The notes beneath the pieces were generated by a model. That model had not been told where the DNA came from and searched no databases. It worked only from the letters and a program-made list of their open reading frames with translations. This document shows positions 1,889 through 17,966 of a stretch of 40,722 bases of DNA, piece by piece. Source of the DNA: Candidatus Omnitrophota bacterium (GTDB taxonomy: Bacteria; Omnitrophota; Omnitrophia; Omnitrophales; JACQLI01); NCBI GenBank assembly GCA_016204125.1, contig JACQLI010000023.1:1-40722 (forward strand). Direction: 5' to 3'. Every line of letters starts with the position of its first letter. Within the stretch, counting starts at the first letter, position 1. Position numbers and translations under genes: made by a program.

Positions 1889-2871
1889 TTTTCTCCTCCT
1901 GTTGTTTTTAGGTTTTTAAATTGAAACGACGTTTTTACCCCATTCCATTCTTTTCCATCTACTTCAACGTACGGATAGAAAAAAATGTTGACGGGTGGTC
2001 CTGATTGCTTGGGGACAAGATTGATATCCCGTCCCACACTGATGAGAAACTTATTCGTGTCGTAATTTCCGAAATACACCTCCTTTCTTTCCGGATGTTT
2101 CCAAGCTTCGGAAGCATCCACTGGTTGCCAACCTTTTCCTTCTTCATAAAATTCCGCCCAACAGTGATATCCCGGAATCTCTCCCTCAGCTCCATCCGGA
2201 ACTGTGAGTCCGATTTTAAAACGTGCCGGAATCTCCGCCGCATGAGCCATAGAAATAAAAAGCGAATGAAAATCGGTGCAATTTCCTTTTCCAAGAAGAC
2301 AGGCTCTCGCCGTGTCACCGCGCCCCCATCCCGGAATTGTCTTATCATATTTCATCCAATTGATCACATTTTCATAAATGCCTCTTGCTTGCTCAAGTAA
2401 ATTGCGCTTTCCGTGGATCGCCTGTTGCGTTCTTTTCCTCACTTCGTCATTGACCACCATGAGATGATTCGGCTTCAGATACCGATTTACACCAGTTTCG
2501 TGGTTTGAACTGGCAAAATTTTTCTGAAGGGTTTGAGCATAATAAGTCACTTGGAAATTGAGACCTTGCGGAACACGATCTGAAACTTCAAAATAGGCCA
2601 TTTCATTTCCATAGACGGGATCCTTGGTGATTCGATATGGCAAGCCTGTTATGATCTCCCGTTTTTTTACAATTTGTCCTTCCCGAGAAGAAGCAAGCGG
2701 AATCCATACACTCAGTTTTTTTGCATCCTGAGGGATCGCGCCAATGTAAGTTTCATAACTCACCTTAAACTCCCGCTGCGATGGAAAAGGGTCGACTCCT
2801 TTATGCGACTCAAACAAATAAATAGATCCTAATAGGATGACTGCTCCAGAAAATAGAAATAATTTATTCAT
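1885..2871 (-). CDS. transglutaminase-like (Cys-His-Asp) domain protein, N-terminal signal/anchor
   Basis: GNCTDFHSLF (Cys), GYHCWAEFY (His) and WQPVDASE (Asp) appear in the order typical of the transglutaminase core. I moved the start to the ATG at 2871 (MNKLFLFSGAVILLGSIYLF), 4 nt after the upstream stop. The ORF-track start at 2949 would overlap the upstream gene by 74 nt. Confidence 0.8.
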   Translation of the reverse strand: MNKLFLFSGAVILLGSIYLFESHKGVDPFPSQREFKVSYETYIGAIPQDAKKLSVWIPLASSREGQIVKKREIITGLPYRITKDPVYGNEMAYFEVSDRVPQGLNFQVTYYAQTLQKNFASSNHETGVNRYLKPNHLMVVNDEVRKRTQQAIHGKRNLLEQARGIYENVINWMKYDKTIPGWGRGDTARACLLGKGNCTDFHSLFISMAHAAEIPARFKIGLTVPDGAEGEIPGYHCWAEFYEEGKGWQPVDASEAWKHPERKEVYFGNYDTNKFLISVGRDINLVPKQSGPPVNIFFYPYVEVDGKEWNGVKTSFQFKNLKTTGGEK

Positions 2872-2875
2872 GTTG

Positions 2876-3319
2876 TCACAATACAACCAACTGATAGCCT
2901 TGATCCGCCCATTTTGCAATACTCGGATGGCCTCGGTATTCAGCGACAAGGGAAGCTTTTCTTTCTTTAAGTTTGTCTTTCACCAGAAAAGCAGAAGCAC
3001 AGTAATCGCAGATAACTTCTGTGATGCCGGCTTTTCTGAGTTCTTCATACACCGGTTTCAGTTTATCCTGCGACTCAGGATCGAGCCATTCGCTCACCCA
3101 TTCGGTTCCGGCCCCGTCAAAGACAAGAACAACTTCATGCCCATGTTCTTTCAATTCTTTCGAATAAAGCAACGCGTGCACCGCTCGCGCCATGCCTTCG
3201 TGGCTTTCCTTCCCCGCCTGAAAAATAATCAGATACTTTCCACTTTCAGCGAAAGCATTTGGAAAATAACTGGTTGTCATGAGAGCCGCCAAAAGCACTG
3301 CCATTGTGAAACGCTTCAT
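2876..3319 (-). CDS. DsrE/DsrF-like family protein with signal peptide
   Basis: Signal peptide MKRFTMAVLLAALMTTSYFPNAFA. It has a KYLIIFQAGKESHEG...HEVVLVFDGAGTEWV beta-alpha pattern like the DsrE fold and a C-terminal CDYC. Confidence 0.5.
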   Translation of the reverse strand: MKRFTMAVLLAALMTTSYFPNAFAESGKYLIIFQAGKESHEGMARAVHALLYSKELKEHGHEVVLVFDGAGTEWVSEWLDPESQDKLKPVYEELRKAGITEVICDYCASAFLVKDKLKERKASLVAEYRGHPSIAKWADQGYQLVVL

Positions 3320-3322
3320 TTT

Positions 3323-4102
3323 TCACCTCCTCTTGTATGGAATATTAACGAAAGGTGTTTTAATCATCCCCAATAGCGATTGCCACTCTTTTTCCTGCAA
3401 GTAAGGAAGACCGTACACAAGCGTTCGAGTATCTTTCCTCTTGTGGAAAGACTTAACGATTCTGTCCCAAAAAGAAAAAATGCTTGAGTAATTAGAATCT
3501 GTTTCGCTTCGAATTTGCGAATGATGTACTCGGTGCATATTGGGCGTAACGATTATCGCGCGAAAAATTCGGTCGATCTTTTCAGGCAGTGCGACATTCG
3601 AATGATGAAAAATGATGATCGGCTGCAAACAGAGTTCATAAATCAAAAGTTGAATAAATTGCATTCCAATCAAAGGAATGACAATGAGACGGAGAAGTGA
3701 AGAGAATACAATTTCTCCGGTATGAAACCTGAGAGCACTCGTCGCATCAAGTTCCAGGTCTGAATGATGCATTCTGTGGAACCGCCAGAGAAATGGAATC
3801 TGGTGATTGGCCACGTGCCAAACATACATCCAAAGATCAAAGAGTACGAAGGCGAACGCGCCTTCTATCCAAGAGCTCAAGCTTAATTGGTGAAGAAGCC
3901 CCCATGACCGGCTTTCTGCAAAATGCATCACTTTTAACGTTACGGTAGAAAAAAGCAAGGAGATGATAAGACCATTTAAAACTCCGATTCCGAGATTAGG
4001 TAACGCGTGGCGGAATCGATCATCCCTGCCTTGGAAAAGAGGGAAAATCCCCTCCATCCAGAACACAAGTCCAAGGCTCGCGACTTCAACCCAAAATTTC
4101 AT
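3323..4102 (-). CDS. fatty acid hydroxylase / sterol desaturase family membrane di-iron enzyme
   Basis: Three His boxes, HVANH, HRMHH and HRVHH, sit in a polytopic hydrophobic protein. Confidence 0.85.
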   Translation of the reverse strand: MKFWVEVASLGLVFWMEGIFPLFQGRDDRFRHALPNLGIGVLNGLIISLLFSTVTLKVMHFAESRSWGLLHQLSLSSWIEGAFAFVLFDLWMYVWHVANHQIPFLWRFHRMHHSDLELDATSALRFHTGEIVFSSLLRLIVIPLIGMQFIQLLIYELCLQPIIIFHHSNVALPEKIDRIFRAIIVTPNMHRVHHSQIRSETDSNYSSIFSFWDRIVKSFHKRKDTRTLVYGLPYLQEKEWQSLLGMIKTPFVNIPYKRR

Positions 4103-4764
4103 CGAATCTCCGGATAGAGCTTTCCTTTCAAGCCTAAAATATTAAAGCCTGAGTAACATAAAGCAACAAGAAATATGTTAATCAGTTTTTGTCGGACGCA
4201 ACCATTTTGAGTAAACCGCCGCGCCGATGTCACAACTGGGTCTTGAATAATAACGGGACTTGTCAGCCAACGCAGCCGCTGATAAAAATCAATGTCTTCA
4301 AACGACACAGTCTCACTAAAACCATATAATTTTTCGAAAAGCTTTCTGGTAACGAAAAATCCCTGGTCTCCGTAAGAAAAGAAATGGAATCTCGTATAGG
4401 TCTCGTAGAAACGCAGAAGCCACTGGCGATTGTCGAATTTCATCCTAAAGCGGCCTGCGCTGGCGCCTTGACTGACGACTTCTTTGATCTGCTCTAAACC
4501 ATTCTTAGGTAAGCGAGTATCCGCATGCAGAAAAAGAAAAACATCGCCAGTTGCTATTCTAGTCCCTTCATTCATCTGGCGCGCCCTTCCTTTAGCCGAG
4601 GAAATGACGTTTGCCCACTTAGAAGCAAGCGAAACCGTTTTGTCGGTTGATCCTCCATCCACGACAATTATCTCGTCAGGTTGGTGATGAGAACAAAGAT
4701 CTTGTAAAGTATCACAAATGGTCGACTCCTCATTGTAGGTGGGAATAATAACAGATATCTTCAT
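4099..4764 (-). CDS. GT-A fold glycosyltransferase, TIGR04283-like (ArsS-associated transferase 2)
   Basis: ISVIIPTYNEE, EIIVVDGGSTDKT, GRARQMN, LFLHADTRLP, YGDQGFF, FEDIDF and TSARRF. I set the start at the ATG at 4764 (MKISVIIP). The longer ORF-track start would overlap arsS by 110 nt. Confidence 0.8.
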   Translation of the reverse strand: MKISVIIPTYNEESTICDTLQDLCSHHQPDEIIVVDGGSTDKTVSLASKWANVISSAKGRARQMNEGTRIATGDVFLFLHADTRLPKNGLEQIKEVVSQGASAGRFRMKFDNRQWLLRFYETYTRFHFFSYGDQGFFVTRKLFEKLYGFSETVSFEDIDFYQRLRWLTSPVIIQDPVVTSARRFTQNGCVRQKLINIFLVALCYSGFNILGLKGKLYPEIR

Positions 4765-4777
4765 GCCTTTTACCTTT

Positions 4778-5743
4778 TCACTTTTTACTTTCCAATGCTC
4801 CCTGGCAACTAGAACCGCATCCGGCCGTACACCCAAAACAATGCTCCCCGGTTGCGATTCTGAAATCCTCAAGCTGGGCGGGATCAAGGTTAAAAATAGT
4901 TAAAAGCCTGCCATTTTTCATCTGCATACCTTGAGCCTGATTGAAATCGCAATCATAAACTCTCCCGTCCCACGATACGCTCAAGGTGTTTTGGCACATA
5001 AGACCGTCCAAAGTGGCGGGATTGAAACTGTTCATCAAAAGTTGGGTATAAGTTTCGTACTGGTTAAAGGCCTTTAGATATTTTGTGTATCGGGTAATTG
5101 GCATATTGGTAATGGTATAAAGACGATTAAAAACAATCCCCCAATCCTCCTTGAGTCTTTCTTTGTAATCTTCTTCAAGCTGATCCTGAGCTGGAGGCAA
5201 ATGGGGACCAACCGGATTGTAAACTAGACTGAGGATAAGATTACTCCCTTCCTTCCCATAGCCAAGCTCATTTAATTTCAAAAGGGCTTTGATGGATTCA
5301 TCAAATACACCCTTGCCTCTTTGTTTGTCCACGTTTTCTTTTAAGTAGCAAGGTAAAGAAGCGACAATTTCAACCTGGTGATCCGCCAAAAATGTGTCCA
5401 AATCCTCCTGGCCTGGCACAAAGAGCACGGTTAAATTGCAACGGTCAATTACATGAATGCCGCGCTTCTTTGCTTCCGAAACCAAATACCTAAAATTGGG
5501 ATTTAGTTCTGGTGCACCGCCTGTGAGATCAAGTGTTTTGAATTGAGCTCGATCCATAAAATAGACAACGGCTTCTGCCGTTTCATGGTTCATATTTTCC
5601 CGTGTTTTGGTCGGCCCCGCTTCAACATGACAATGCACACAAGCGAGATTACAAAGTTTCCCAAGATTAACCTGAAGGATCTCTATCTTTTGTTTCCGAA
5701 GCCGGGCGCTAACTTCCCCAAGCTTCTCCTCGAAACGATTCAT
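4778..5743 (-). CDS. arsS: arsenosugar biosynthesis radical SAM protein ArsS (radical SAM / Cys-rich C-terminal domain, TIGR04167-like)
   Basis: CNLACVHC radical-SAM CxxxCxxC triad near the N-terminus and a Cys-rich C-terminal tail CFGCTAGCGSSCQGAL. It sits beside arsM and the two context-linked transferase families. Confidence 0.85.
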   Translation of the reverse strand: MNRFEEKLGEVSARLRKQKIEILQVNLGKLCNLACVHCHVEAGPTKTRENMNHETAEAVVYFMDRAQFKTLDLTGGAPELNPNFRYLVSEAKKRGIHVIDRCNLTVLFVPGQEDLDTFLADHQVEIVASLPCYLKENVDKQRGKGVFDESIKALLKLNELGYGKEGSNLILSLVYNPVGPHLPPAQDQLEEDYKERLKEDWGIVFNRLYTITNMPITRYTKYLKAFNQYETYTQLLMNSFNPATLDGLMCQNTLSVSWDGRVYDCDFNQAQGMQMKNGRLLTIFNLDPAQLEDFRIATGEHCFGCTAGCGSSCQGALESKK

Positions 5744-5746
5744 CTT

Positions 5747-6901
5747 TTAAGCTCCTATTCTCGATAATAAAATAAAACTTGCTGCTGAAAAAAATGCTGC
5801 TACCGGCAAAGTCAAAAACCATGCGCCCAAAATGGAAGAAATCACATTCCACCGCGCTTTTCCATTCACAAGACCGATTCCGAAAAGGGCTCCGCAAGAA
5901 ACATGGGTCGTTGATACCGGCATTCCCCACTGGGAAGCAAAAATAACCAAAATGGCAGTGACCAAATTGGCCGCCAGTCCCTGGCCATGATTCATGTAAG
6001 TGATCTTGTGAGAGACCGTTTCGGCCACTTTCCGTGCGCCCAGGATTCCGCCGACCGCCATCGCCAAAGCAACAAATCCGACATTCCAAGTTAAACCAAG
6101 CGCACTTGAAGCCACAAGAAGAGCAACGATCTTTGGCGTATCATTTAGTCCTCTGGCAAAACTAACAGCTCCCGCACTCAGGAAATGGAAGAAATCAAGA
6201 ACCGACTGAGCGTTCACGCCAAACATTTTCCCTTCATAAATCTCAATCGCTTTGGCTTTGCAGCTTTTCTCATTTCCAACAAATACCTCGGGCAACGTAA
6301 TTTCTGTGCTGGTAAACATTTGTCCATTTTCCAAACCCAAATCTGCCAGAGGAATAACTTTTTCACCAACGCAGAGACAACTCTTTCGCGTAATACCGAG
6401 TGTTTTTCTTGCCTTATGCATCACAAAATAAACCGCTGTGGTCAAAACAAGCGCCATAAAGGGACTTGCGATAAGAGGCATGAGAAAGTTTTTTCCCAAG
6501 GTAGTGAATCCAAGTTCCCCTCCAATTGCTATAAATCCGGCTCCGACCAAAGCTCCTGTAAGGCCGTGTGTGGTTGAAATCGGAATCCCAAAGCGTGCGG
6601 CTAAAAGGACGGTTAAACCCGCGCCTAAGGCGACTGCTGCGAGAAACGCCGGATTTCCAATCACAGCATCCGGAACAAGCCCTTTACCCGTAAACGTTCT
6701 CACCAGACGGGTGGCAAGAAAAAGTGCCGCAATTGATCCTGAAAGTGTCGTCGCCGTAGCCCAGCTCAAGGCCTTCCGGTAATCTGTCGTTCCACTTCCA
6801 AACAGCGTGGCTACGCCCTTGAAATTGTCATTCGCACCATTTGCATACGCTACCAGCAATACTGCGATTAATACTGTTAACATCCAAACCATTAGCAGCA
6901 A
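5747..6901 (-). CDS. PiT (PHO4) family inorganic anion transporter
   Basis: Two-fold repeat signatures GANDNFKGVATL and GLNDTPKIVALL in a protein with about 10 TM segments and a central hydrophilic loop. It overlaps the arsM stop by 10 nt and ends 3 nt before the arsS start. Confidence 0.85.
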   Translation of the reverse strand: MLLMVWMLTVLIAVLLVAYANGANDNFKGVATLFGSGTTDYRKALSWATATTLSGSIAALFLATRLVRTFTGKGLVPDAVIGNPAFLAAVALGAGLTVLLAARFGIPISTTHGLTGALVGAGFIAIGGELGFTTLGKNFLMPLIASPFMALVLTTAVYFVMHKARKTLGITRKSCLCVGEKVIPLADLGLENGQMFTSTEITLPEVFVGNEKSCKAKAIEIYEGKMFGVNAQSVLDFFHFLSAGAVSFARGLNDTPKIVALLVASSALGLTWNVGFVALAMAVGGILGARKVAETVSHKITYMNHGQGLAANLVTAILVIFASQWGMPVSTTHVSCGALFGIGLVNGKARWNVISSILGAWFLTLPVAAFFSAASFILLSRIGA

Positions 6902-8106
6902 CCTCCATCCAAACAGACAGATTTCGCTACAGTTGTTTTTCTGTACCGTTTCCCTTTGGTTTCGCGCGGATCACGTTCCGCTGTGCGGTGACAATCAAAA
7001 GGTTTGGCTTTGGCAAGCGGAACATCTTTCGACGGTGGCACCAAAATGAAATCGTTGTGATAGGGCGCCTTGGAATAGATCTGATAGGTCTTATCACAGA
7101 CCGCCGTTCTTGCACCGCGTTTCAGAACATGCCCATCATCATCCACAACCTGTTTCCATGGTCCCTTATAAATCACGGCTTGATTTCTTTCCCAGCAAGG
7201 GCCTTCCTTACCTTTATAGGCCGTAATCGTGACCGAGCGAAATTCGATTCCTTGAACAATGCGCCACGGTCTTTCATCAAACTTTTCAATTTTGAGTCCG
7301 TAAAAACCGGCTTCCTCAAAAGCCCTGACAAATTCTTTCTCCTGAAAGGCTCCCGAGATACATCCACTCCAAAGCTCTGGATCCTTCTGAAGTTTATGAG
7401 GGATGGACTCGTCCGAAACAATATCGGAAATTGCGACACGTCCGCCCTTTCTCAAAACTCGGTGAATTTCCCGGAACAAAGTTTTCTTGTCTTCAGATCG
7501 GACGAGATTCAAGACACAATTGGAAACAATCACATCAATGGATTCATCTTCAATGAGCGGCGATTGCTGCCGTATGTGTTCCACCGCATCCTCGAAATGA
7601 GTCAAATCGTCCACCGAATGAATCGGGTTGCCTTTGAACGTTGCCTCTAAGGCTTCAAGGTCTGTCCTTAAATCTTGAATGCGGCCTCTTCGGAACTCCA
7701 CATTGTGCCAGCCGATTCGGTCACCAACCTCCTTTTGATATTTTCTGGCGAGCGCTAACATGGGAGGGTTGAAATCAATGCCAATTACTTTCCCCTTCGG
7801 ACCCACGATTTGAGAGGCGATGTAACAGATTTTCCCTGCACCGGATCCCAGATCCAAAACCACATCGCCTTCTTTCAGATAGCGCGAAGGATCCCCGCAG
7901 CCATAATCCCTTTCGAGGATTTCCTTAGAGATAACCTTAAGATACTTGGGATCGTAGCTCGTGGGACAGCAAAGAGCTTCTTCTTTGGCCTTTGCCCCCC
8001 GCGCATACCGCTCCCGGACCGCTTGTTCGACGGGCAGCCTTCCGTTCAAGAACAGCTCTCGACCATTAGTGTGATGTTTTCCATTTCCATTATGTGAATA
8101 TTTCAT
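6892..8106 (-). CDS. arsM: arsenite S-adenosylmethionine methyltransferase ArsM with C-terminal extension
   Basis: SAM motif VLDLGSGAGK. The conserved As-binding cysteine contexts YGCGDP, SNCVLNL and WSGCISGA are present, plus LCCP near the N-terminus and GGCC at the C-terminus. I set the start at the ATG at 8106 (MKYSHNG), preceded by GGGAGGTAAGG. Confidence 0.85.
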   Translation of the reverse strand: MKYSHNGNGKHHTNGRELFLNGRLPVEQAVRERYARGAKAKEEALCCPTSYDPKYLKVISKEILERDYGCGDPSRYLKEGDVVLDLGSGAGKICYIASQIVGPKGKVIGIDFNPPMLALARKYQKEVGDRIGWHNVEFRRGRIQDLRTDLEALEATFKGNPIHSVDDLTHFEDAVEHIRQQSPLIEDESIDVIVSNCVLNLVRSEDKKTLFREIHRVLRKGGRVAISDIVSDESIPHKLQKDPELWSGCISGAFQEKEFVRAFEEAGFYGLKIEKFDERPWRIVQGIEFRSVTITAYKGKEGPCWERNQAVIYKGPWKQVVDDDGHVLKRGARTAVCDKTYQIYSKAPYHNDFILVPPSKDVPLAKAKPFDCHRTAERDPRETKGKRYRKTTVAKSVCLDGGCC

Positions 8107-8770
8107 GTTCCTTACCTCCCCTAAGATTTTTCGCCGATCCGACCGATCGGTGCCAGATGACCGAGCGGCCGTCCGCCGCTTGACCGACTGGTACTTCATC
8201 AAGATCATCAAGTTTCTGAAGCAAATAGTAAGACAAATTCTTTTCATTCAACTTGTTTAATGTCGATTCAAACACGTGCTGCGAACTCCACGGAATATTT
8301 TTGAAGATTGAGGGCTGTTCACAATTGGTTCCAATCAGATAGTAACCGCCGTCATAGGCAGGACCGATGACAACGTCATAAAACTCAAGGGCGTCAAATC
8401 CTTTCATGATCAAATCGGCCCTAAGGCCCAAAGTGTCGCTTCCAAGCGCCATTACTTTTTTGAACCCCTTTTCGAAAGCAAACTGAAATGCATTTTGAAG
8501 ACGCACTCCAAGACCAGAACCTCTTTGAACCACATATTCATAAGAGCCAGAAAGCCAGGAACGAAAGGCCTCTTCTTTCTCTGGAGGATCAAAAGCGACG
8601 ATTAGTTTTATGAAATCTTGGGGAAGAGAATTAAGAATTCCAAGGTTTGTCTCGGTAAGCTCACGATAGGCTTGCGCAGCGCGTTGGTCTCCGACGCTTT
8701 TTGCAAGCCGCGTTTTTACCTTGCCCGGCTCCGGATATTTCACGAAATACAAAATCAATTTATCTCCCAT
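8090..8770 (-). CDS. DUF2064 / TIGR04282-like (ArsS-associated transferase 1)
   Basis: KYPEPGKVKTRLA, ALGSDTLGL and GPAYDGGYYLIG, the nucleotidyl/glycosyl-transferase-like hallmarks of DUF2064. Confidence 0.8.
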   Translation of the reverse strand: MGDKLILYFVKYPEPGKVKTRLAKSVGDQRAAQAYRELTETNLGILNSLPQDFIKLIVAFDPPEKEEAFRSWLSGSYEYVVQRGSGLGVRLQNAFQFAFEKGFKKVMALGSDTLGLRADLIMKGFDALEFYDVVIGPAYDGGYYLIGTNCEQPSIFKNIPWSSQHVFESTLNKLNEKNLSYYLLQKLDDLDEVPVGQAADGRSVIWHRSVGSAKNLRGGKEHEIFT

Positions 8771-9479
8771 GAGAACTCACCAGATATTTTTCTCTTAAAT
8801 TCTCCGGATTCTCCTTTAAGAGCTTATAGCCAAAAAGGATCCGAGCGTTTCTAAGGATTTGGCGAAGAACGCCGTGTTCCATGTACCGTCTTGAGGAGAC
8901 AGCTACCGGCTCCTCGATCATAGTGATGCGGCCTTTCTTCCTCATGCAATCCGAAAAAATCAAATCCTCAAGCAAGGGAACTTCCGGAAATCCATTGAGT
9001 GATTCGAAGACTTCCCGCTTCACAAAAATTGCATTCGTTCCCACAAGACAATGCATCAGGCCAAGGTAAATGGTATTTAGGAGAAACTCGTAGACACCAA
9101 GTAGGAAACTCGTAGGCTCGTATTTTTTCCTGAATCCCCCTCCGATGTACCTTTGCTCAATCTTCTCCTGTACAAGTCCAATCGCCCTGTCTGGAAGACG
9201 CACATCTGCATGAGTAAAAAGGAAGACATCTGATTGGGCTTCGAAGGCTCCCGCATTCATCTGAAGTGCGCGATCCGGATACGCTGTCTGAAACAGGCAG
9301 ACACTTGGATACTCACGCCGGATGATTTCATCGGTGCCGTCCCGGGAATTCCCGTCCACAGCAATCACCTCATCCGCTCCGAGCGAAAGGAGGTGTGTCA
9401 GCGTCCGAGCAATAAGGGTTCTTTCGTTCGCAACCGGAACAATAATGGAAACTGTTGGTTTTTTGTCCATAACTCCCAT
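8760..9479 (-). CDS. GT-A fold glycosyltransferase, second TIGR04283-like paralog
   Basis: VSIIVPVANE, EVIAVDGNSRDGT, RALQMN, LFTHADVRLP, LEDLIF and VSSRRY. These are collinear with the 4099..4764 protein. An alternative ATG lies at 9470. Confidence 0.75.
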   Translation of the reverse strand: MGVMDKKPTVSIIVPVANERTLIARTLTHLLSLGADEVIAVDGNSRDGTDEIIRREYPSVCLFQTAYPDRALQMNAGAFEAQSDVFLFTHADVRLPDRAIGLVQEKIEQRYIGGGFRKKYEPTSFLLGVYEFLLNTIYLGLMHCLVGTNAIFVKREVFESLNGFPEVPLLEDLIFSDCMRKKGRITMIEEPVAVSSRRYMEHGVLRQILRNARILFGYKLLKENPENLREKYLVSSHGR

Positions 9480-10819
9480 CCCAAAAAGAAATAAAAGATG
9501 CCATATTCAACCAAGCGAGACAAATCGAAGAAGTGAGGTTTCCCCTGATAGGTGAAATAGAAGTCTAGGTAATAAAGAAAAATCAAGCCCGAAAGCAGGA
9601 TCAGAGAACGCAGAGGTATGAAGAAAAGAAACGGAAAGATCCATGTGAGGTACCACGGATTTCCTGTTGGAGCGAGGAGAAAAAGGAACGTCAAAACCAC
9701 AAGCGAGGCCTGGCAGAAGGAAAGGAGATCCTCTTTTCTCTTAAGCCAATGAAGGACGAGAACAATAGCTGTGGAGAAAATTCCTCCAGCGATTATCCGA
9801 CTCATTGCATGAGTCCACTCATTATTCACCGGTAGCATTGAAACGCTGCCGTGAATCAAGCTAAACAGGCCGTCGTTGACCCTCCAAGAGGTTGCAAAGA
9901 TTCCCAAACCTTCAAAAAGAGAAACTCCCACACCGGAAAAAGGAAGGTAAAAGAGAACGAGTAAAACCAAAAAGAGTCCAACTCCCAGAAAGGTTTGGCG
10001 CCTTTGCTTTGGCAAAGTCCACGCGATAAGAAGCGGGAAAAGAACGACGGGAAACCATTTGGTTAAGGCGGCTAGACTAAGAAGTCCATAGGCGGATACG
10101 AGCCAGTCTCTCGTCAGGCAATAGATCATTCCCGTAAGAAAGAGAATAACAAACACATCAAGATGAAGGCTGTTTGAAAATTCTTTTAATACGAGAGGCG
10201 ACCAGGCATAAAGAAGACTCCATTCTTTGGAAATGTCAAAGCGCTTAAGAATAGCAACTGTCAGAGAGAGAATTCCAAGTTCAGCGACAAGAATCATCGC
10301 TTTCCAACCCCAGAGTTTCCAAGGCGTGATCCACTGAGACAGGGCAAAGAGAATCTGAGCGAAGGGAGGATAAATCGTTTTAATCCCCGGGTGATTGATT
10401 CTTTCAAAGACGGCTCCCATGTCGGGAGAGCTAATCTCTCCCCTTTCTTCTCCTGTCTGAAAAGCTTCCTTGGGCGAAAGCGCGTAGGGATTCTCTCCTC
10501 GGAGAAGCGTCTCGCCATCCCAAAGGTAGCGGTAAGGATCGGTTTCCTGAATCGGGTTGGATGGAAGATACGCAACACGGCAAAGAATGGCGATCACAAA
10601 AATCCACAGAGACAGAAAAGACTTTGAGTGAGTTTCTTTCGAATTCCTCCTTAACCACTCGAAGGTTGCAAAGTAAGCAATGAACGCCAAACCTTCAAGC
10701 ATAAGGAAAGATAGAATCGGCCGCTCCGCATGGCCCGCTCCGAAGACAAAAGAATGGCTAAGCCATGAAATCCCAATTTGCGTCAACAAAATGAACGCGC
10801 CCAAGACGATCAGAGTCAT
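9398..10819 (-). CDS. polytopic membrane protein, GT-C type (DUF2029/GT87-like) glycosyltransferase
   Basis: At least 10 hydrophobic segments. The first periplasmic loop carries ETDPYRYLWDGETLLRGENPY, resembling the acidic-loop motif of polyprenyl-phosphate-sugar dependent GT-C enzymes. Confidence 0.6.
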   Translation of the reverse strand: MTLIVLGAFILLTQIGISWLSHSFVFGAGHAERPILSFLMLEGLAFIAYFATFEWLRRNSKETHSKSFLSLWIFVIAILCRVAYLPSNPIQETDPYRYLWDGETLLRGENPYALSPKEAFQTGEERGEISSPDMGAVFERINHPGIKTIYPPFAQILFALSQWITPWKLWGWKAMILVAELGILSLTVAILKRFDISKEWSLLYAWSPLVLKEFSNSLHLDVFVILFLTGMIYCLTRDWLVSAYGLLSLAALTKWFPVVLFPLLIAWTLPKQRRQTFLGVGLFLVLLVLFYLPFSGVGVSLFEGLGIFATSWRVNDGLFSLIHGSVSMLPVNNEWTHAMSRIIAGGIFSTAIVLVLHWLKRKEDLLSFCQASLVVLTFLFLLAPTGNPWYLTWIFPFLFFIPLRSLILLSGLIFLYYLDFYFTYQGKPHFFDLSRLVEYGIFYFFLGWELWTKNQQFPLLFRLRTKEPLLLGR

Positions 10820-12090
10820 GGTCGAGTCCCCCGTTCACAAATTTGGGCAAACCTTTTCGCCGAAGGACGGATCTTTCGCTCCTGCGTTTCGTAATCCACC
10901 TCAATGAGCCCAAAGCGGGGTGAGAACCCTTCCGCCCATTCATAATTATCAAGCAGGGACCAGTAGAGGTAGCCAAAGACCGGGGCTCCTTCTTGGATCG
11001 CCTTCGCAAGTTCACCTAAATGGCTCTCGATAAATTCAAACCGCTCCTCGTCATGATCCGTGCAGACTCCGTTCTCGGTAACCAGGAGCGGAAGCTTATA
11101 TTGGGAGAATTCCTTGATGAGGCGGTAAAGGCCCTGCGGGTAGATTTCCCAGGAAAGAAAATTACGCCTGCCCACTTGCCGGTGGTGTTTCAAGGTACAG
11201 ATGTCGCCGAAGAGAGCGGGGATCCGAAAGCCCTCGTTATGAACAAAATCACGCGTGTAGTAATTCATGCCGATGAAATCAAGCGTGCGTGCCTTGGGGA
11301 GCTGAATCTTAAAAAGGCCGGGATAAAAAATGCGGCCGCGGATCAAGGCCCTGATGAAAAGATGATTGAACATCAGGTTCCGAATCCAAACGGAAATCCG
11401 GTCCTTCCAGGAACGGTCGGAACAGGGAGTAAAGATCAATACGTGTTTCGCAATCCCCACTTGGGCGGGTGAGCGCTTCAGCCGCTGGTTCACCTCTTTG
11501 ACGGCGTCGTAAGCCAGGACATGACCTTTGAGGAGATGGCCTAATGCTTGCAAGGTTTTTTCGTAGGATCTTTCAGCCGGAGGCCATTCCCCCATGAAGT
11601 AACTTTTAAAAACATAGGCGACAGGTTCATTTAAAGTGATCCAGTACCGGACACCTTCGCCGAGCGTTTCGACCGCTTTTCGGACATATCGTGCAAAAAG
11701 ATTCGGTGTCTTGTGTGAAAGCCATCCGCCCTGCTTGGCAAGCCAAAGAGGCAGGGTAAAATGATGCAGCGTGACGATGGGCTCTAACCGATTCAATTTG
11801 AGGGCCTCAATGACCTCGCGGTAATGCGAAAGCGCCTCCTCGTTGAATTGGCCTTCCTCGGGTTCGATCCGGCTCCATTCCAGGGAGAAGCGGTGGGCAT
11901 TATGGTGAAGAGATTTCGCCAAAGAGAAATCTTCCCGGAACCGATTCCAGTGGTCACAAGCCTTCCCGGAACGCTCTTTGACCTTCCCGTTTTGCTCCCA
12001 ATCCCACCAGTCACTGTTTATGTTATTTCCTTCCACTTGATGAGAGGAAGTCGCCGCCCCCCAAAGGAAATCTTTTGGGAATTCAAACAT
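10816..12090 (-). CDS. glycoside hydrolase family 1 (beta-glucosidase-like)
   Basis: FLWGAATSSHQVEGN, acid/base ITLNEP and nucleophile VTENG, with no signal peptide. I set the start at the ATG at 12090, preceded by GAGGTGAGGAAG. The ORF-track start at 12099 is a GTG. Confidence 0.9.
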   Translation of the reverse strand: MFEFPKDFLWGAATSSHQVEGNNINSDWWDWEQNGKVKERSGKACDHWNRFREDFSLAKSLHHNAHRFSLEWSRIEPEEGQFNEEALSHYREVIEALKLNRLEPIVTLHHFTLPLWLAKQGGWLSHKTPNLFARYVRKAVETLGEGVRYWITLNEPVAYVFKSYFMGEWPPAERSYEKTLQALGHLLKGHVLAYDAVKEVNQRLKRSPAQVGIAKHVLIFTPCSDRSWKDRISVWIRNLMFNHLFIRALIRGRIFYPGLFKIQLPKARTLDFIGMNYYTRDFVHNEGFRIPALFGDICTLKHHRQVGRRNFLSWEIYPQGLYRLIKEFSQYKLPLLVTENGVCTDHDEERFEFIESHLGELAKAIQEGAPVFGYLYWSLLDNYEWAEGFSPRFGLIEVDYETQERKIRPSAKRFAQICERGTRP

Positions 12091-12415
12091 CTTCCTCACC
12101 TCTCAACGCTTCAATAACGTCATCCGCACAATTTTCCCGCATAAGAAAATAGGTTTCGATAGCTTGAATCGCCATTTCAGCGTCATCTCCCTCTACCTCA
12201 ACGACCAGTTTTGATTTCCATGTCGCTCCTAAAAGGAGAAGCCCCAGAATGCTTTTCCCGTCCACCGAAAGCCTCCCCTTGCGGATCCGGATGTCAGAGC
12301 TAAATTGCTTAGCGAATAAGATAAAACGGGTTGCCGTGCGGGCATGAAGACCGAGCTGACACGGCATCGTTACTTCTGTCTTCCTGATCCTCGCGTCCTT
12401 GCTTTCGAGTTCCAT
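12083..12415 (-). CDS. ptsH: HPr-family phosphocarrier protein
   Basis: Active-site His context QLGLHARTA and regulatory Ser context DGKSILGLL. I set the start at the ATG at 12415, directly preceded by AGGAGGTGGGAG. Confidence 0.8.
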   Translation of the reverse strand: MELESKDARIRKTEVTMPCQLGLHARTATRFILFAKQFSSDIRIRKGRLSVDGKSILGLLLLGATWKSKLVVEVEGDDAEMAIQAIETYFLMRENCADDVIEALRGEEDV

Positions 12416-12430
12416 CTCCCACCTCCTCAT

Positions 12431-12601
12431 TTAAAAAGGAATCTTGATCTGCTTGCCGCAATGGGGGCAAACAATGACGCGATATTTTCCGGTCGAATCT
12501 TCAACAACCCTTTCCTCAAACACAGCCTTAGGCACCCGGCTTAATCCTGAACAGCCGCTCATGAGAGTCGCGACGACGAAGATAAGAACCATCCTTTTCA
12601 T
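12431..12601 (-). CDS. small lipoprotein with CPHC motif (56 aa, below the ORF-track cutoff)
   Basis: My translation is MKRMVLIFVVATLMSGCSGLSRVPKAVFEERVVEDSTGKYRVIVCPHCGKQIKIPF. It has a lipobox-like LMSGC. It fills the gap between the oxidoreductase stop (12604) and the HPr ORF exactly. Confidence 0.45.
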   Translation of the reverse strand: MKRMVLIFVVATLMSGCSGLSRVPKAVFEERVVEDSTGKYRVIVCPHCGKQIKIPF

Positions 12602-12603
12602 GG

Positions 12604-14046
12604 TTATGCCAACCGAATCAGCCTCTTCGCTAATTTAGGAAACCAACCGCTAAACAACTTTTCTCTGTAGTATTGATCACAAGAACGTTTCACTGCTTGC
12701 GAAAGTGTCGGATAAACATGGATCGTCTGGGAAATCTGGGTGATCGGAATTCTTGCTTTCATGGCGAGAGCAAATTCGTGGAGGAGTTCTCCCGCATTCG
12801 GACCCAGAAGATGGGCACCCAAGATTTGATTCTTCCTATCGCAAACCAGCTTAATGAGGCCGTGGCCTTCCCCTTCGATCACCGCTCGATCCACATCTTC
12901 AAATTGAAACTTGAATACCTGAATATTCTTTTCTCCGTATTCTTTTTTGGCTTCTGCCTCGGTCATTCCAACGCGGCCTAACTCAGGATCCGTATAAGTG
13001 ACCCACGGCACAACGCGATAATCGGTTTTTCGGTTCATAAAAGGGAAAAGCGCATTCGAGACGACAATCCCAGCTTGATATTCCGCTACATGCGTAAAGG
13101 GATAAAGTCCCGTGACATCACCCGCTGCGAAGATGTGTCTTAAGGAAGTTCGCATCGTAGTGTCCACTTTAATTCCTTTCTTATCGTGCTCAACACCGAT
13201 AAGCTGTAAATTAAGGCCTTCGATATTTGGAGCACGGCCGATGGCAATCATCACTTCATCGACTTCCAAATTCAAATTGCCATGGATCTCGCACTGAGCC
13301 GCTAACAATCTCTTCCCATTCCCATTTCCCTTGACTTCCTTAACTTCCATGCAGGTTACAATATCAATTCCTTCTTTCTTAAGAATCCCCTCTAAGGCAT
13401 CCGCAAGTTCCTTATCCTCACGCGGTAAAATCTGACCCATTTTTTCAATAACCGTAACCTTAGAACCTAACCGTGCGAATACTTGCGCAAACTCCATTCC
13501 AATCGGTCCTGCGCCAAGAATCGCAATCGACTTGGGTAAGTCCTTAAGTTGAAGAGCGGTAATATTGGTAAGGGCACCTGATTCTTTAAGACCAGGTATG
13601 GGTAGGATCACAGGTCTTGATCCCGTTGCTATCAAGAATTTTTTAGCTTGAACTCGTCTTCCCTGTTTTCCGTTCGTCTCGAAGGTATGAGGATCGATGA
13701 ACTTCCCTTCTCCAAAGATCACCTCAACACCCATCTTTCTGAATCTCTCGGGATCGTCATTCTTGCCAATGCGTTCTTGAACTGAACGCATCCGGTTCAT
13801 AACTTTTTTGAAATTTACCTGCGCTCCAGATTTCTCGATCCCGAATTCTTCAGAACGCTTGATGAGGGAAGCGACTTTCGCAGACTGAACGAGGGTTTTT
13901 GTCGGAACGCAGCCCCAGTGAAGGCAGTCTCCCCCGAGAGATTCTTTCTCCACTAGGGCAACCTTTGCTCCAAACTGAGCGGCTCCACTTGCGGTAACAA
14001 GCCCTGCAACACCGCCTCCTATAATCACCAGGTCAAACTGTGTCAT
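12604..14046 (-). CDS. class I FAD-dependent pyridine nucleotide-disulfide oxidoreductase (dihydrolipoyl dehydrogenase / mercuric reductase-like)
   Basis: FAD fold VIIGGGVAGL, redox-active disulfide GGDCLHWGCVPTK, NAD fold ILGAGPIGMEFA and a C-terminal interface motif HVYPTLSQ. Confidence 0.85.
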   Translation of the reverse strand: MTQFDLVIIGGGVAGLVTASGAAQFGAKVALVEKESLGGDCLHWGCVPTKTLVQSAKVASLIKRSEEFGIEKSGAQVNFKKVMNRMRSVQERIGKNDDPERFRKMGVEVIFGEGKFIDPHTFETNGKQGRRVQAKKFLIATGSRPVILPIPGLKESGALTNITALQLKDLPKSIAILGAGPIGMEFAQVFARLGSKVTVIEKMGQILPREDKELADALEGILKKEGIDIVTCMEVKEVKGNGNGKRLLAAQCEIHGNLNLEVDEVMIAIGRAPNIEGLNLQLIGVEHDKKGIKVDTTMRTSLRHIFAAGDVTGLYPFTHVAEYQAGIVVSNALFPFMNRKTDYRVVPWVTYTDPELGRVGMTEAEAKKEYGEKNIQVFKFQFEDVDRAVIEGEGHGLIKLVCDRKNQILGAHLLGPNAGELLHEFALAMKARIPITQISQTIHVYPTLSQAVKRSCDQYYREKLFSGWFPKLAKRLIRLA

Positions 14047-14716
14047 AGGAATTCCCTCCCTTGATTTTTTTGTAAATTGACGGCAGAAAGGAAATGAAAA
14101 TCAAAAGCACGCCGGCCAGAATCAAATTGAGAAAGGCCGCTCGACTGGCTCCTTGAACTCCTTCGAGAAGCGCATCTGCAAAATAGGTGTAGATAAAAGT
14201 CCCGGGTAGCATTCCAATTACTGACGCTAGGAGATAATCGCGATACCTGACGGCTGAGAAACCTGCACCAAAATTGAGACCGTTAAAGGGAACAATTGGA
14301 ATTAGGCGAAGACGGAAAATGGTTTTAAAGCCAGACCTTCCGATTTGCTCATCGAGCTCGGCAAGTTTTCCGCCCTTTAGGAAGCTCTTTACAAAATCAC
14401 GCCCCAAATAACGTGCTGCAAAGAAAGCGAGCGACGCTCCAAGGTTTGAAGCAATCACGTTATAAAGCGTTCCCCATGCCGTACCAAAAACGGCTCCCCC
14501 AGCAAGTGTTAGCAGCGAACCTGGTAAAGCGACAACACATCCAACAGAATAAATCGCAATAAAAATGAACGGTCCCCACCATTGGCCCCGTAGGGATTCA
14601 AGAAAACTGACGATCTGTTCCTTTGTAAAATACTGAGAAAGGGGTGTGTAGCGCACGACGAGACCAACGACAAGAATAACAGCTACTAAAATGATAAATC
14701 TCGTTATTTTGTTCAT
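14033..14716 (-). CDS. TVP38/TMEM64 (DedA superfamily) membrane protein
   Basis: LPGSLLTLAGGAVFG and RLIPIVPFNGLNFGAG motifs in a multi-TM protein. Its stop overlaps the oxidoreductase start by 14 nt. Confidence 0.8.
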   Translation of the reverse strand: MNKITRFIILVAVILVVGLVVRYTPLSQYFTKEQIVSFLESLRGQWWGPFIFIAIYSVGCVVALPGSLLTLAGGAVFGTAWGTLYNVIASNLGASLAFFAARYLGRDFVKSFLKGGKLAELDEQIGRSGFKTIFRLRLIPIVPFNGLNFGAGFSAVRYRDYLLASVIGMLPGTFIYTYFADALLEGVQGASRAAFLNLILAGVLLIFISFLPSIYKKIKGGNSYDTV

Positions 14717-14719
14717 TAC

Positions 14720-15013
14720 TCAGCGCTCCTTAACTTCGAGACCATTTGCCTTGAGAATTTCAAGTGCATGCGCACGACAATCCAAAAAATGGCGCAGCTG
14801 ATCCGGCTTTTCAGCTTCAACCATGTGAATCAAATCCTTTTCGCTTACATCAAGCAATGCGATGGTAGCAAGATATTCCCTATCCTTTTCTGATTTCATC
14901 TGCGTCATGAGTTCCTGCGTGGCAATTCCCTCCACAAATCGCAAACGAACCAATGCCGCAAGCTTCTTAAAAGGAATTCCGCAATAACAGGCCGAAACTT
15001 TGATTTTCTCCAC
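14720..15013 (-). CDS. hypothetical 97-aa protein
   Basis: ORF tightly packed in the array, 3 nt from the downstream gene. The N-terminal SACYCGIPFKKL is reminiscent of the first Cys pair of BFD-like domains, but no second Cys pair is present. Confidence 0.45.
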   Translation of the reverse strand: MEKIKVSACYCGIPFKKLAALVRLRFVEGIATQELMTQMKSEKDREYLATIALLDVSEKDLIHMVEAEKPDQLRHFLDCRAHALEILKANGLEVKER

Positions 15014-15029
15014 TGGAATGCTCCTTACA

Positions 15030-15272
15030 TCAAGTTCTTGAGGCGCTTCCTAAATTCTCTTTCATCAAGCGCGAGAACGCCTCAAGCAAACGTTCTGGAA
15101 TTTCTCCACAGCTGACATCAAATTGAGCATCTGTCTTTTTTCCGAGCTCGGTTATGAAATCGCGGCATGGTTTGCACTTCTTGACGTGAGACTGAAACTG
15201 TCTCTGGGCCTCACTAGAAGGTTTTGTCTCAGCAAATGTATAAATCAAATCTGCGGCTTCGTTACAGGTCAT
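15030..15272 (-). CDS. small soluble ZAS-like (HxxxCxxC) putative anti-sigma / redox-sensor protein
   Basis: HVKKCKPC motif and an upstream Cys (MTCNE) with no TM segment. It is collinear with the anti-sigma factor at 16961..17254, including EIPERL versus EIPPEL. Its start forms an ATGA overlap with the DUF547 gene stop. Confidence 0.55.
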   Translation of the reverse strand: MTCNEAADLIYTFAETKPSSEAQRQFQSHVKKCKPCRDFITELGKKTDAQFDVSCGEIPERLLEAFSRLMKENLGSASRT

Positions 15273-16372
15273 GTCTTGTTCTCCTTTTCATTGAGGCTCC
15301 AGTCATATTCGAGCCATTCGATTTTGGTTTTCTCAGAGATTTTTTCTTTAGCCTCTTTCGGCCCGTGGGTCTTCACAAAACTGAGAATCCCGTCCGCCCT
15401 TTCAAAATCCTTCCGGAACCATTTGAAGATGGGAGAAAGATAAAGTGTATCGGTCGCCTCATCGTAACGGGATTTCTTTGGATCTGACAGGAAATTCCGG
15501 ACCTGATCATTGAGTTGGGCATCGAGCTTACTTCCTTGGTAAGGTTCGCTTCGAATGACCGGACAACCCAAGGAGGCGCAAACAAGCGCAAAGTGGATCC
15601 TTGGCTCCTGAAATTCTTTTCGAAGGATTTGGTGTTCAATATGATTAAGGCTCAACGACTCGTCGAAAACTTTGAGGACTTTGCGGGCCCAAACATCCGG
15701 AATCTGCTGGATGCTATTTTCGGGATAGGCCAGCGCTTTCCATCCGAATCTTTTCTGCAAAGGATAATGATCGATCACTAACTTAACTGCGGCTGCATTG
15801 TAGGTGTTGATCCAGAAGGCAATCTTTTCATCTCGGCTCATTTCCTCATAGTTTTCTTTGGAAAGACTTTCGAGCGATTTCATATATTCATTCAAACCCT
15901 GTCTCTCGCGCTTTAATTTCAAATAGTCTACCCTGTCATTAACGGCATAACCTCGAAGGACTTTCGCATAGGCAGAATAATCAAAAGTAAACTCTGCGCT
16001 CGCAAATGCACTTTCGAAAAACGTCGAAGTACCTAGAAATAAAAAGAGAAAAAGAGGCATGCGATGAAGAAACATCGGACAATGTCCACCGCCCAAGAAC
16101 TGCCAGATCCTTGTATTCAAAACGAAATGACGGATCGCCGGCTTTCCTTGCTCCTCTTCTCTAAAAATGAGGCAGACCAGAAAACGCATCGAGATCTTCA
16201 ACGTTTCCCACAGGGCATAGAAAATGCCGGACAAAATTGCCAGCATTCCACCGAGGACAAGCAGAGGACTCAACCACCAACCAAAGAGGATATTTATCAA
16301 AGGGGACACGGCCAACATAAATCCCACCGTCATGCCTCCGATGCCCATCAATGCAAGTTCGCCGGGTTTCAT
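15269..16372 (-). CDS. DUF547 domain membrane protein
   Basis: WINTYNAAAVKLVI and IHFALVCASLGCP hallmarks of DUF547, with N-terminal hydrophobic helices. Its start forms an ATGA overlap with the upstream stop. Confidence 0.75.
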   Translation of the reverse strand: MKPGELALMGIGGMTVGFMLAVSPLINILFGWWLSPLLVLGGMLAILSGIFYALWETLKISMRFLVCLIFREEEQGKPAIRHFVLNTRIWQFLGGGHCPMFLHRMPLFLFLFLGTSTFFESAFASAEFTFDYSAYAKVLRGYAVNDRVDYLKLKRERQGLNEYMKSLESLSKENYEEMSRDEKIAFWINTYNAAAVKLVIDHYPLQKRFGWKALAYPENSIQQIPDVWARKVLKVFDESLSLNHIEHQILRKEFQEPRIHFALVCASLGCPVIRSEPYQGSKLDAQLNDQVRNFLSDPKKSRYDEATDTLYLSPIFKWFRKDFERADGILSFVKTHGPKEAKEKISEKTKIEWLEYDWSLNEKENKT

Positions 16373-16746
16373 GGTTCTATCCGCACGGTTTTAATACCTT
16401 CGAGCTCTTTGGCACGCGTTCTATGCCATTCCTCCAGGATTTTGAAATCGGCCAATAAAGCTTCTTCTTCAGAAATTAGATCATCGTACTCTTTAATACT
16501 CTCTTTGAGCTGAGGCGATGCAGAGGGTCTTGATCGCTTGGTAAAATTTTCCCTTTCCCTCTTATAGCCAGCAATATCCTCTCTTTGCCACTCGGCCAGC
16601 TCACGGTAGGACTCGGCCTGTTTAAGATGCTGCGCGGCTGTCTCAAGAACTTGGGGCCAACCTTGGTTTGGAAAGGCAAAACTGAGTAGTACCAGAAGAA
16701 TCACGAAGACAACCCCATCCGTTTTCATCTGATTCACCCTCTTCAT
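16369..16746 (-). CDS. secreted/anchored helical protein of unknown function
   Basis: Hydrophobic VVFVILLVLLSFAF followed by a charged helical region. I chose the start MKRV at 16746 because its ATG overlaps the TGA of the small upstream ORF. An alternative ATG lies at 16779. Confidence 0.5.
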   Translation of the reverse strand: MKRVNQMKTDGVVFVILLVLLSFAFPNQGWPQVLETAAQHLKQAESYRELAEWQREDIAGYKRERENFTKRSRPSASPQLKESIKEYDDLISEEEALLADFKILEEWHRTRAKELEGIKTVRIEP

Positions 16747-16862
16747 GGTTTCTTGTCGGAATTTGTCACCGGTCCACATCCGCAGGTGCCTCCGTGTTTA
16801 ACTCGCCAAATGAGCCATGCGGCTACGGCCCCGACAATCAACAAACCAAGTATCAGTTTCAT
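16743..16862 (-). CDS. 39-aa Cys-rich small membrane peptide (resembles FeoB-associated Cys-rich membrane proteins)
   Basis: My translation is MKLILGLLIVGAVAAWLIWRVKHGGTCGCGPVTNSDKKP, one TM helix then GGTCGCG. It lies 26 nt downstream of the repeated ECF-type promoter motif. Its stop overlaps the next start (ATGA). Confidence 0.4.
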   Translation of the reverse strand: MKLILGLLIVGAVAAWLIWRVKHGGTCGCGPVTNSDKKP

Positions 16863-16887
16863 GGTGATATTTCACTCCTTTCGCTAT

Positions 16888-16919
16888 TGATTAAGATGCG
16901 TGTGGAGGCAAAAGGATTC
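16888..16919 (-). promoter_or_regulatory. ECF-type promoter motif, copy 2 (in front of the 21-gene array)
   Basis: The minus strand reads GAATCCTTTTGC-N7-CGCATCTTAATCA. Both blocks and the spacing are identical to the copy upstream of the ECF sigma gene. Confidence 0.5.
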
Positions 16920-16960
16920 AGCGCCTAGGACTACGTTCAGACAGGAGGTGGGATAGTGGG

Positions 16961-17254
16961 TTACGAGGAACCGGCCAGGCGGAGCCACAACCGTTTCCAG
17001 AATCCAGGTGGCTGTAGGCCCGGCTTGGACTTAATAAAGCTACGTAACTTCTGCCTAAGCTCGGGAGGAATCTCTCTCGGATGGAGTTCTTTCGAGAGCT
17101 TGATTGTTTGCCTGTAGGTATTGATGAAGGCAAGACAGCCCGGGCAATCAGCCAAATGCTGTTCGAGCTGTTGCCTCAGCGCAGGCTCAAGCGAGCCGTC
17201 AATGTAGTCATAGAGGAGCTTGCCGACATCACGACACCTAAGCATCGTATTCAT
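16961..17254 (-). CDS. zinc-binding anti-sigma factor (ZAS, zf-HC2), soluble
   Basis: HLADCPGC (HxxxCxxC) plus an upstream Cys (LRCRD). It overlaps the ECF sigma stop by 4 nt. I see no TM segment. Confidence 0.75.
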   Translation of the reverse strand: MNTMLRCRDVGKLLYDYIDGSLEPALRQQLEQHLADCPGCLAFINTYRQTIKLSKELHPREIPPELRQKLRSFIKSKPGLQPPGFWKRLWLRLAGSS

Positions 17255-17877
17255 TTTGGGCTAACCATCTTGAAATTTGGAAAATGCGCTGTCATATAGT
17301 CTGCTAATTCCTTGCGCAAAAAAAGCCGTGCCCGATGGAGCCGGCTCTTCAAGGCCGCAATGGAGATTTCAAGGATCTGGCTCGTCTCCTCTGCTGAAAG
17401 CTCTTCGATGTCCCTTAGGATAAATACACTTCGATAATCCGGTGGGAGAGCCGTAAGGGCCTCATCGATCCGATGAAGAAGTTCCTTACGCATCAGTTCC
17501 TCATCAGGAAGTTTTGACCAGTCGACTACGGGCTCAGCAATCATTCCTTCCTCTGTCATCTTAGGCCCCAACTCCTCTTCAAGCGGTATCTCCTGAAATT
17601 TGGACCGCTTTCTAAGCTTCATGAGTGCGGTGTTCGTAGCAATCCGGTAAATCCAACTCGAAAGCTTGGCGTTTCCCCGAAACCCATCAATTTTCTGAAA
17701 AACGGTCAAGAAGACATCCTGGAGGATTTCCTCCGCATCTTGACGATTGCCTGTCATCCGAAGAGCCAGACCGAAGATCTTGGCCTCATACTGGGTCATC
17801 AGGGCTTCCAAGGCAGCTTCGTCCTTCGCCTTGAGCCGTCTAATAAAATTCAGATCGTCAGATGGGGATTTGGCCAT
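17251..17877 (-). CDS. ECF (sigma-70 group 4) RNA polymerase sigma factor
   Basis: Region 2, DAEEILQDVFLTVFQK...WIYRIATN, and region 4, LSAEETSQILEISIAALKSRLHRAR. Confidence 0.9.
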   Translation of the reverse strand: MAKSPSDDLNFIRRLKAKDEAALEALMTQYEAKIFGLALRMTGNRQDAEEILQDVFLTVFQKIDGFRGNAKLSSWIYRIATNTALMKLRKRSKFQEIPLEEELGPKMTEEGMIAEPVVDWSKLPDEELMRKELLHRIDEALTALPPDYRSVFILRDIEELSAEETSQILEISIAALKSRLHRARLFLRKELADYMTAHFPNFKMVSPK

Positions 17878-17934
17878 GTTTCGTATTCTAGCCCCGCATC
17901 CTCACCTGGACAAGAAGCCTTTTCCGGTTCTCAG

Positions 17935-17966
17935 TGATTAAGATGCGGAAGTTAGCAAAAGGATTC
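17935..17966 (-). promoter_or_regulatory. ECF-type promoter motif, copy 1 (likely autoregulatory, upstream of the sigma gene)
   Basis: The minus strand reads GAATCCTTTTGC-N7-CGCATCTTAATCA and ends 58 nt upstream of the sigma start codon. Confidence 0.5.

Follow-up and report, generated by a model that had tools for sequence, protein, structure and literature searches.

In Streptomyces coelicolor (SigR-RsrA) and in mycobacteria (SigH-RshA), the ECF12-type thiol-stress switch combines an ECF sigma factor with a small ZAS anti-sigma factor, which is soluble and encoded next to it. The zinc ligands of RsrA are Cys11, His37, Cys41 and Cys44, of which the N-terminal Cys permits oxidative release of the sigma factor, whereas RsiW, the partner of Bacillus subtilis SigW, is an HHCC-type protein that sits in the membrane and is removed by proteolysis (PMC4960319). 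Hallmarks of ECF factors are the restriction to domains sigma-2 and sigma-4, a linker of <50 residues and an overlapping anti-sigma gene, and their generic promoter consensus consists of AAC and CGT (PMC8103513). Inferring the cognate promoter of a sigma factor from a conserved motif upstream of its own gene is standard practice (PMC7826278).

A comparable locus is present in the window, i.e. the whole analyzed stretch of 40,722 nucleotides from Candidatus Omnitrophota. The preliminary description of this DNA had reported an identical two-block motif upstream of both an ECF sigma gene and a small Cys-rich ORF, and had proposed that the sigma factor drives its own operon as well as an array of 21 genes. 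Around the motif copies the genes are directed along the minus strand throughout, and the following features were assigned:

17935..17966, minus strand: promoter copy 1 (P1), predicted to be autoregulatory (exact match, 36.2 bits, orthologous copies)
17958-17966, minus strand: -35 block of P1, GAATCCTTT
17939-17946, minus strand: -10 block of P1, GCATCTTA
about 17934-17935, minus strand: predicted transcription start of P1, from the GCATC-to-ATG distance in loci L193, L194 and L220
17251..17877, minus strand: ECF sigma factor, 208 aa (Pfam, NCBIfam and structure match)
16961..17254, minus strand: soluble ZAS anti-sigma factor, 97 aa (Pfam zf-HC2, E = 5.7e-12)
16888..16919, minus strand: promoter copy 2 (P2), predicted target promoter (exact match, 34.8 bits, 8-region alignment)
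16911-16919, minus strand: -35 block of P2
16892-16899, minus strand: -10 block of P2
about 16887-16888, minus strand: predicted transcription start of P2
16875-16880, minus strand: ribosome-binding site AAGGAG of P2, following the predicted start
16743..16862, minus strand: membrane-anchored Cys-rich peptide, 39 aa, MKLILGLLIVGAVAAWLIWRVKHGGTCGCGPVTNSDKKP, encoded by the first gene after P2 and ending in a C-terminal TCGCG
15030-15272, minus strand: second zf-HC2 protein, a CHCC ZAS paralog (C3, H29, C33, C36)
1640..16779, minus strand: twenty further tightly packed genes, possible targets of P2 (family matches)

The sigma factor contains the Pfam domains Sigma70_r2 (residues 26-93) and Sigma70_r4_2 (residues 135-187) and neither r3 nor r1. 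It reaches 105.8 bits against the sigma70-ECF model TIGR02937 (cut-off 42.9), and the start of the anti-sigma gene overlaps its stop by 4 nt. The structural ECF hallmarks listed in PMC8103513 are thus all found in the protein encoded at 17251-17877. Its closest solved structure is that of B. subtilis SigW (PDB 5wuq, E = 1.6e-30), which is also the closest characterised sigma factor, and the NCBIfam SigW models gave the best-scoring named matches. Nevertheless, it is not a SigW equivalog (NF007223, 143.2 vs 209; TIGR02948, 135 vs 243.1). As in the SigW-RsiW system, autoregulation and co-transcription with the anti-sigma gene are predicted here, on the basis of the motif and the gene overlap. 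The anti-sigma factors differ: the one encoded here is a soluble CHCC-type protein, unlike the membrane-bound HHCC protein RsiW. No hydrophobic stretch or membrane segment was found in its sequence, which carries the motif HLADCPGC. The zinc site is formed by C7, H33, C37 and C40, a 26/4/3 spacing identical to that of Cys11, His37, Cys41 and Cys44 in RsrA. Every orthologous locus for which genes were called shows the pairing of sigma and anti-sigma genes, and the N-terminal CHCC Cys is kept in L031, L196 and L194.

The resemblance to SigR-RsrA extends to the predicted autoregulatory promoter, the GAAT in the -35 block and the thioredoxin-type targets, which are found in relatives in the present case. 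On the other hand, the family cut-offs are missed by a wide margin (TIGR02947, 86.1 vs 251.55; TIGR03988, 38.4 vs 62.5), the regulon appears tiny with 2-3 promoters per genome, and the -10 block reads GCATC, whereas SigR combines a GGAAT -35 element with GTTG. Unlike in the SigR-RsrA setting, we know of no mycothiol system in the Omnitrophota host. Judged by these features, the system is one that works like a thiol-stress ECF switch of the SigR-RsrA type, but neither its scores nor its -10 element make it a member of that family. The generic ECF autoregulatory promoter was reportedly used by Staron in 2009 for group-wise motif prediction. The logic and outcome for this promoter (Casas-Pastor 2021, PMC7826278) are the same as those for the motif described below, as a conserved two-block motif located ahead of the sigma operon and of conserved neighboring genes travels with sigma orthology.

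Pattern searches in the window confirmed the repeated motif. The minus strand reads GAATCCTTTTGC-TAACTTC-CGCATCTTAATCA at 17966-17935 and GAATCCTTTTGC-CTCCACA-CGCATCTTAATCA at 16919-16888, both exactly as described before and with 0 mismatches. The spacers of the two copies are unrelated, and so are their flanks outside the 32 nt. Between copy 1 and the sigma ATG (17877) lie 57 nt, and 25 nt separate copy 2 from the ATG of the small ORF (16862); the previously given distances of 58 and 26 nt were each too large by one. No further match to GAATCCTTTTGC-N7-CGCATCTTAATCA was found in the window with up to 3 mismatches allowed, nor did any occur in dinucleotide-preserving shuffles (0/100). The earlier remark that there is no third copy proved true for the window and also for the whole assembly (1,110,657 bases in 86 contigs, 73% complete), in which a fuzzy scan revealed none. 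The assembly was additionally scanned with a two-block weight matrix, which was trained on 18 sites from other genomes only and has a maximum of 38.6 bits. Copies 1 and 2 scored 36.2 and 34.8 bits, respectively. The next-best sites reached 19.1 and 18.4 bits, and five shuffled genomes 18.5-22.5 bits. Weak extra sites on contigs C82 and C61 were regarded as noise because of their shuffle-level scores and the lack of a gene in the right orientation downstream. The genome scan that had been suggested as a check thus yielded two strong sites only, and by the fuzzy scan and the weight matrix a common dispersed repeat was rejected. All of the 25 positions formerly noted are identical, but the functional core appears to be narrower and comprises about GAATC(C/G)TTT and GCATCnnA. 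The base preceding GCATC is a C at 17947 and 16900 of the window and a T at L196:2944 and 3977 in the closest relative. This concerted difference between the window and L196 concerns a position of low information in the family matrix.

The conservation of the motif was analyzed in 18 orthologous sigma loci of Candidatus Omnitrophota, including the window, which were obtained by genome searches and contig look-ups and share 57-100% sigma identity. Many sigma orthologs at 57-90% identity are present in public data. The core motif was found in 15 of the 18 loci, down to a sigma identity of 57%, with unrelated spacers of a fixed length of 7-8. A copy is positioned ahead of sigma or its operon in 12 loci (the window, L196, L191, L193, L194, L195, L199, L202, L203, L220, L221 and L222) and is absent from there in the remaining six. 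Two of these operons, which end in the sigma and anti-sigma genes, have the motif before a different first gene, namely galT (L199) or a thioredoxin gene (L222). Most motif-bearing loci harbor one or two more copies 3' of the anti-sigma gene. These copies precede the small CGCG peptide gene in L196, L031, L203, L221 and L222, the gene of AhpC in L201, that of a membrane glycosyltransferase in L202 and DUF1059 genes in L194 and L220. The motif also precedes thioredoxin and VTT genes in L218 and DsbD genes in L203 and on contig C67 of genome G345. Altogether, the target genes in the relatives are coherent and encode thioredoxin, AhpC, DsbD, DUF1059, VTT, ArsM and ArsS.

An alignment of eight P2 regions showed a mean column identity of 43% and 19 invariant columns, 14 of which are located in the two blocks (GAA.CCTT and GCATC..AA) and most others in the ribosome-binding region. 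Within 97 kb of loci, matches of at least 20 bits numbered 29 on the sigma strand and 0 on the opposite strand, 11 of the 29 being from loci outside the matrix training set; given the relatedness of the compared loci, such counts overstate independence.

Genome-wide counts were made with the strict pattern GAATCNTTT-N11/12-GCATC, with the reversed pattern as control. Five genomes with a sigma ortholog (93-95% completeness) contain 2-3 strict matches each, whereas the control gave 0. Two strict matches always flank the sigma locus, although in G133 the second one is placed at the start of another contig. A third match is found ahead of a DsbD gene in G345; in G012 it is intragenic and was considered to be probably due to chance. 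Four genomes without the ortholog (96-97% completeness) contain 0, 0, 0 and 1 matches, while more distant ECF sigmas are present in them. In L032:3396-3419 (RIFCSPLOWO2_12_FULL_50_11) the sigma gene is broken by an N-run flanked by a short duplicated stretch. Such a scaffolding gap accounts for the split sigma match in G012; the gene is intact in L196.

No motif was detected in the loci L192 (G353), L204 and L219, whose sigma orthologs are 61-67% identical and retain region 4.2 unchanged, and the strict pattern is absent from the entire G353 genome. A co-variation comparison revealed region 4.2 to be invariant in motif-bearing and motif-less lineages alike. In 30 upstream regions of more distant orthologs from Acidobacteriota, Calditrichota and other groups (about 41-49% identity), the sequence is mostly a different one with a TATATT or TAGACT-like box near the start, and these orthologs are unusable for footprinting; for the Acidobacteriota orthologs at about 45% identity the region mostly looks housekeeping-like. 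Look-alikes of the motif occur some 100 nt ahead of the sigma match in L034 and L035, a Bryobacteraceae and a Calditrichota locus with ~45% sigma identity. They read GAATCC...GCATCTTGATCA and GTATCCTTT...CATC with spacers longer by 3 and 1 bases, respectively, and may be either chance occurrences or diverged versions of the motif. A scan of metagenome contigs, based on a two-sequence sigma alignment and poorly chosen peptide patterns, retrieved only distant relatives with up to 46% identity.

According to the weight matrix from other genomes, the core consensus is GAATC(C/G)TTT-N12/13-GCATCnnA, with poorly conserved bases between the blocks. If nGAATC is taken as the -35 hexamer, the distance to CATC is 16 nt, and this two-block geometry and spacing fit an ECF promoter. 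The SigW promoters of B. subtilis, TGAAAC-N16-CGTA, have the same 16-base spacing. The SigW -35 box ATTGAAACCTTT (PMC8103513) also resembles CGAATCCTTT of the motif, but the -10 letters differ from those of SigW too. The designation as an ECF-type motif in the preliminary description is borne out by the geometry and not by the textbook letters, since the motif has AAT in place of AAC (-35) and CAT in place of CGT (-10). Departures from these letters are also known for accepted ECF groups such as SigR (GGAAT/GTTG).

The position of the start codons provides an indication of the transcription starts. In three lineages the sigma ATG is located exactly 7 nt after GCATC (motif sites L193:1206-1240, L194:1444-1479 and L220:2967-3003), which points to leaderless messages with starts about 8 nt past the -10 block. 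Thus, the sigma genes of L193, L194 and L220 are probably leaderless. Application of this distance to the window predicts a 57-nt leader for P1 and a 25-nt leader with AAGGAG for P2. The sigma leaders in the window and L196, at about 50-57 nt, are unlike those of the three lineages. The motif is located only 10-13 nt before the ATG of DsbD-like genes at L203:1659-1697 and on C67 of G345 (L215:1487-1525, minus strand). This suggests that the messages of the DsbD-like targets in L203 and G345 are leaderless or nearly so.

Taken together, the exact duplication beyond chance, the footprinting with conservation in 15 of 18 loci, the strand bias of 29 to 0, the co-occurrence of motif and sigma ortholog and the -35/-10 geometry indicate that the two motif copies are very likely the cognate promoters of the adjacent ECF sigma factor (17251-17877), and the dual-promoter core of the earlier proposal is supported to this extent. 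In the circuit that we propose, the sigma factor would be bound by the soluble CHCC zinc anti-sigma factor in the resting state. Thiol-reactive stress, caused by oxidants, electrophiles or possibly arsenite, would break the zinc site and set the sigma factor free. Its sigma-4 domain would then read the -35 block GAATC(C/G)TTT and its sigma-2 domain the -10 block GCATCnnA, located about 11-13 bases downstream of the -35 block, and transcription would begin about 8 bases past GCATC. Copy 1 would direct expression of the operon of sigma and anti-sigma genes, resulting in positive feedback plus a fresh supply of the inhibitor. From copy 2, the gene of the small Cys-rich peptide would be expressed, together with at least the initial genes of the array with thiol-redox and arsenosugar-type functions.

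The proposed control of the whole 21-gene array was supported only in part, by the predicted promoter and the tight gene packing. We consider the chances evenly balanced that one P2 transcript spans the entire array. The weight matrix found no further motif copy inside the array and no convincing intrinsic terminator was detected there; no informative site came out of simple searches for terminators or sigma-70 promoters, whose counts were at or near those of shuffled sequence. The anti-sigma stop and copy 2 are only 41 bases apart, with no evident terminator in between, so that transcription from copy 1 could also continue into the array.

The array encodes DUF547, second zf-HC2, VTT/DedA, class I disulfide oxidoreductase, HPr, GH1, large membrane, PiT-family transporter, fatty-acid hydroxylase and DsrE proteins. 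It further includes two TIGR04283 glycosyltransferases (224.4 and 171.3 bits, the second being below the cut-off of 182), a TIGR04282 glycosyltransferase (187.1 bits, cut-off 134), an ArsM-like methyltransferase, which at 390.3 bits is below its cut-off of 500, and ArsS (TIGR04167, 451.3 bits, cut-off 300). The 39-aa Cys-rich peptide did not match any Pfam or NCBIfam family. In six lineages (the window, L196, L031, L203, L221 and L222), the gene that comes first behind the target promoter encodes a conserved small peptide of 34-43 aa, which consists of one transmembrane helix followed by the pattern W.I.R.K/H...C..CGCG. The ZAS paralog encoded at 15030-15272 has the CHCC spacing of 26/4/3, as do the anti-sigma factor and RsrA, and its gene is also present in L196. 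If it is driven by P2, this protein could act as an inducible second anti-sigma factor with delayed negative feedback.

Other explanations of the motif have to be weighed against its function as a cognate promoter. It could be a promoter that is read by another alternative sigma factor, e.g. the ECF protein of contig C8, with the adjacent sigma gene merely as a target. The host genome contains four sigma-70 family genes, two of them of ECF size with the second one on C8, and the three motif-less lineages retain the adjacent sigma ortholog. However, no motif is present upstream of the C8 sigma gene, and the counts of 0-1 matches in genomes that lack the ortholog despite having other ECF sigmas, as opposed to 2-3 always flanking matches in those with it, make recognition by a different sigma factor improbable. 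It is slightly less probable still that the motif is the operator of a MerR- or ArsR-type repressor or activator and not itself a promoter. The blocks are neither palindromic nor repeated, and their orientation is biased by 29 to 0. Moreover, the -35/-10 spacing fits, the start codon is fixed 7 nt past the second block in three lineages, and apart from the sigma/anti-sigma pair no regulator gene travels with the motif. These properties outweigh the occurrence of MerR genes near sigma in L201 and L220 and the conservation beyond the usual hexamers (TTT after GAATCC and an A three bases past GCATC), which would be compatible with an operator.

The two copies might also be left over, without a function of their own, from a recent gene conversion or local duplication, given that they agree even at the low-information positions 11-12, 20 and 30-32, i.e. 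beyond the apparent functional need. Yet neither the spacers nor the flanks are related, 15 lineages retain the core with spacers that have diverged, and the closest relative has both copies, which are not identical to each other at several positions of low information. We therefore attach next to no weight to a mere duplication, the least probable of these explanations, and retain the interpretation of both copies as cognate promoters of the adjacent sigma factor.

The RsrA-like CHCC spacing and the thiol-redox targets make thiol-reactive stress the most likely input of this circuit. Genes of the arsenosugar type are found repeatedly on the downstream side in the window, L199, L201, L202 and L221, and arsenite binds thiols. 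This renders arsenite a candidate and plausible inducer. A merR-merT-CopZ-like cassette adjoins the sigma gene on the same strand in L201 (1269-2917) and divergently in L220 (1326-2876), which may point to a broader connection with metals that bind thiols. A more far-reaching possibility, which we consider unlikely, is that the CHCC-ZAS/ECF pair senses arsenite or a thiol-binding metalloid directly and governs a regulon for organo-arsenicals and thiol repair independently of ArsR, with the ZAS paralog as an inducible brake. If true, a GAATCC/GCATC switch over ArsM, ArsS, the TIGR04282/04283 glycosyltransferases and the PiT importer would represent an undescribed control of arsenic biotransformation.

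The searchable literature contains no mention of Omnitrophota ECF factors, nor of arsM or arsS being under ECF control. The predicted circuit is of an ordinary kind, yet it is not known to have been described before for this uncultured phylum. To our knowledge, no regulation beyond ArsR repressors is known for genes of arsenosugar-type chemistry, and the predicted circuit would tie a thiol-sensing type of anti-sigma factor to such genes. The set of sigma factor, anti-sigma factor and promoter is compact and apparently highly specific (2-3 sites per genome) and could serve as an orthogonal expression switch. For the uncultured, host-associated Omnitrophota, the locus would provide the first well-supported sigma-promoter pair, with a usable consensus, predicted transcription starts and a very small regulon.
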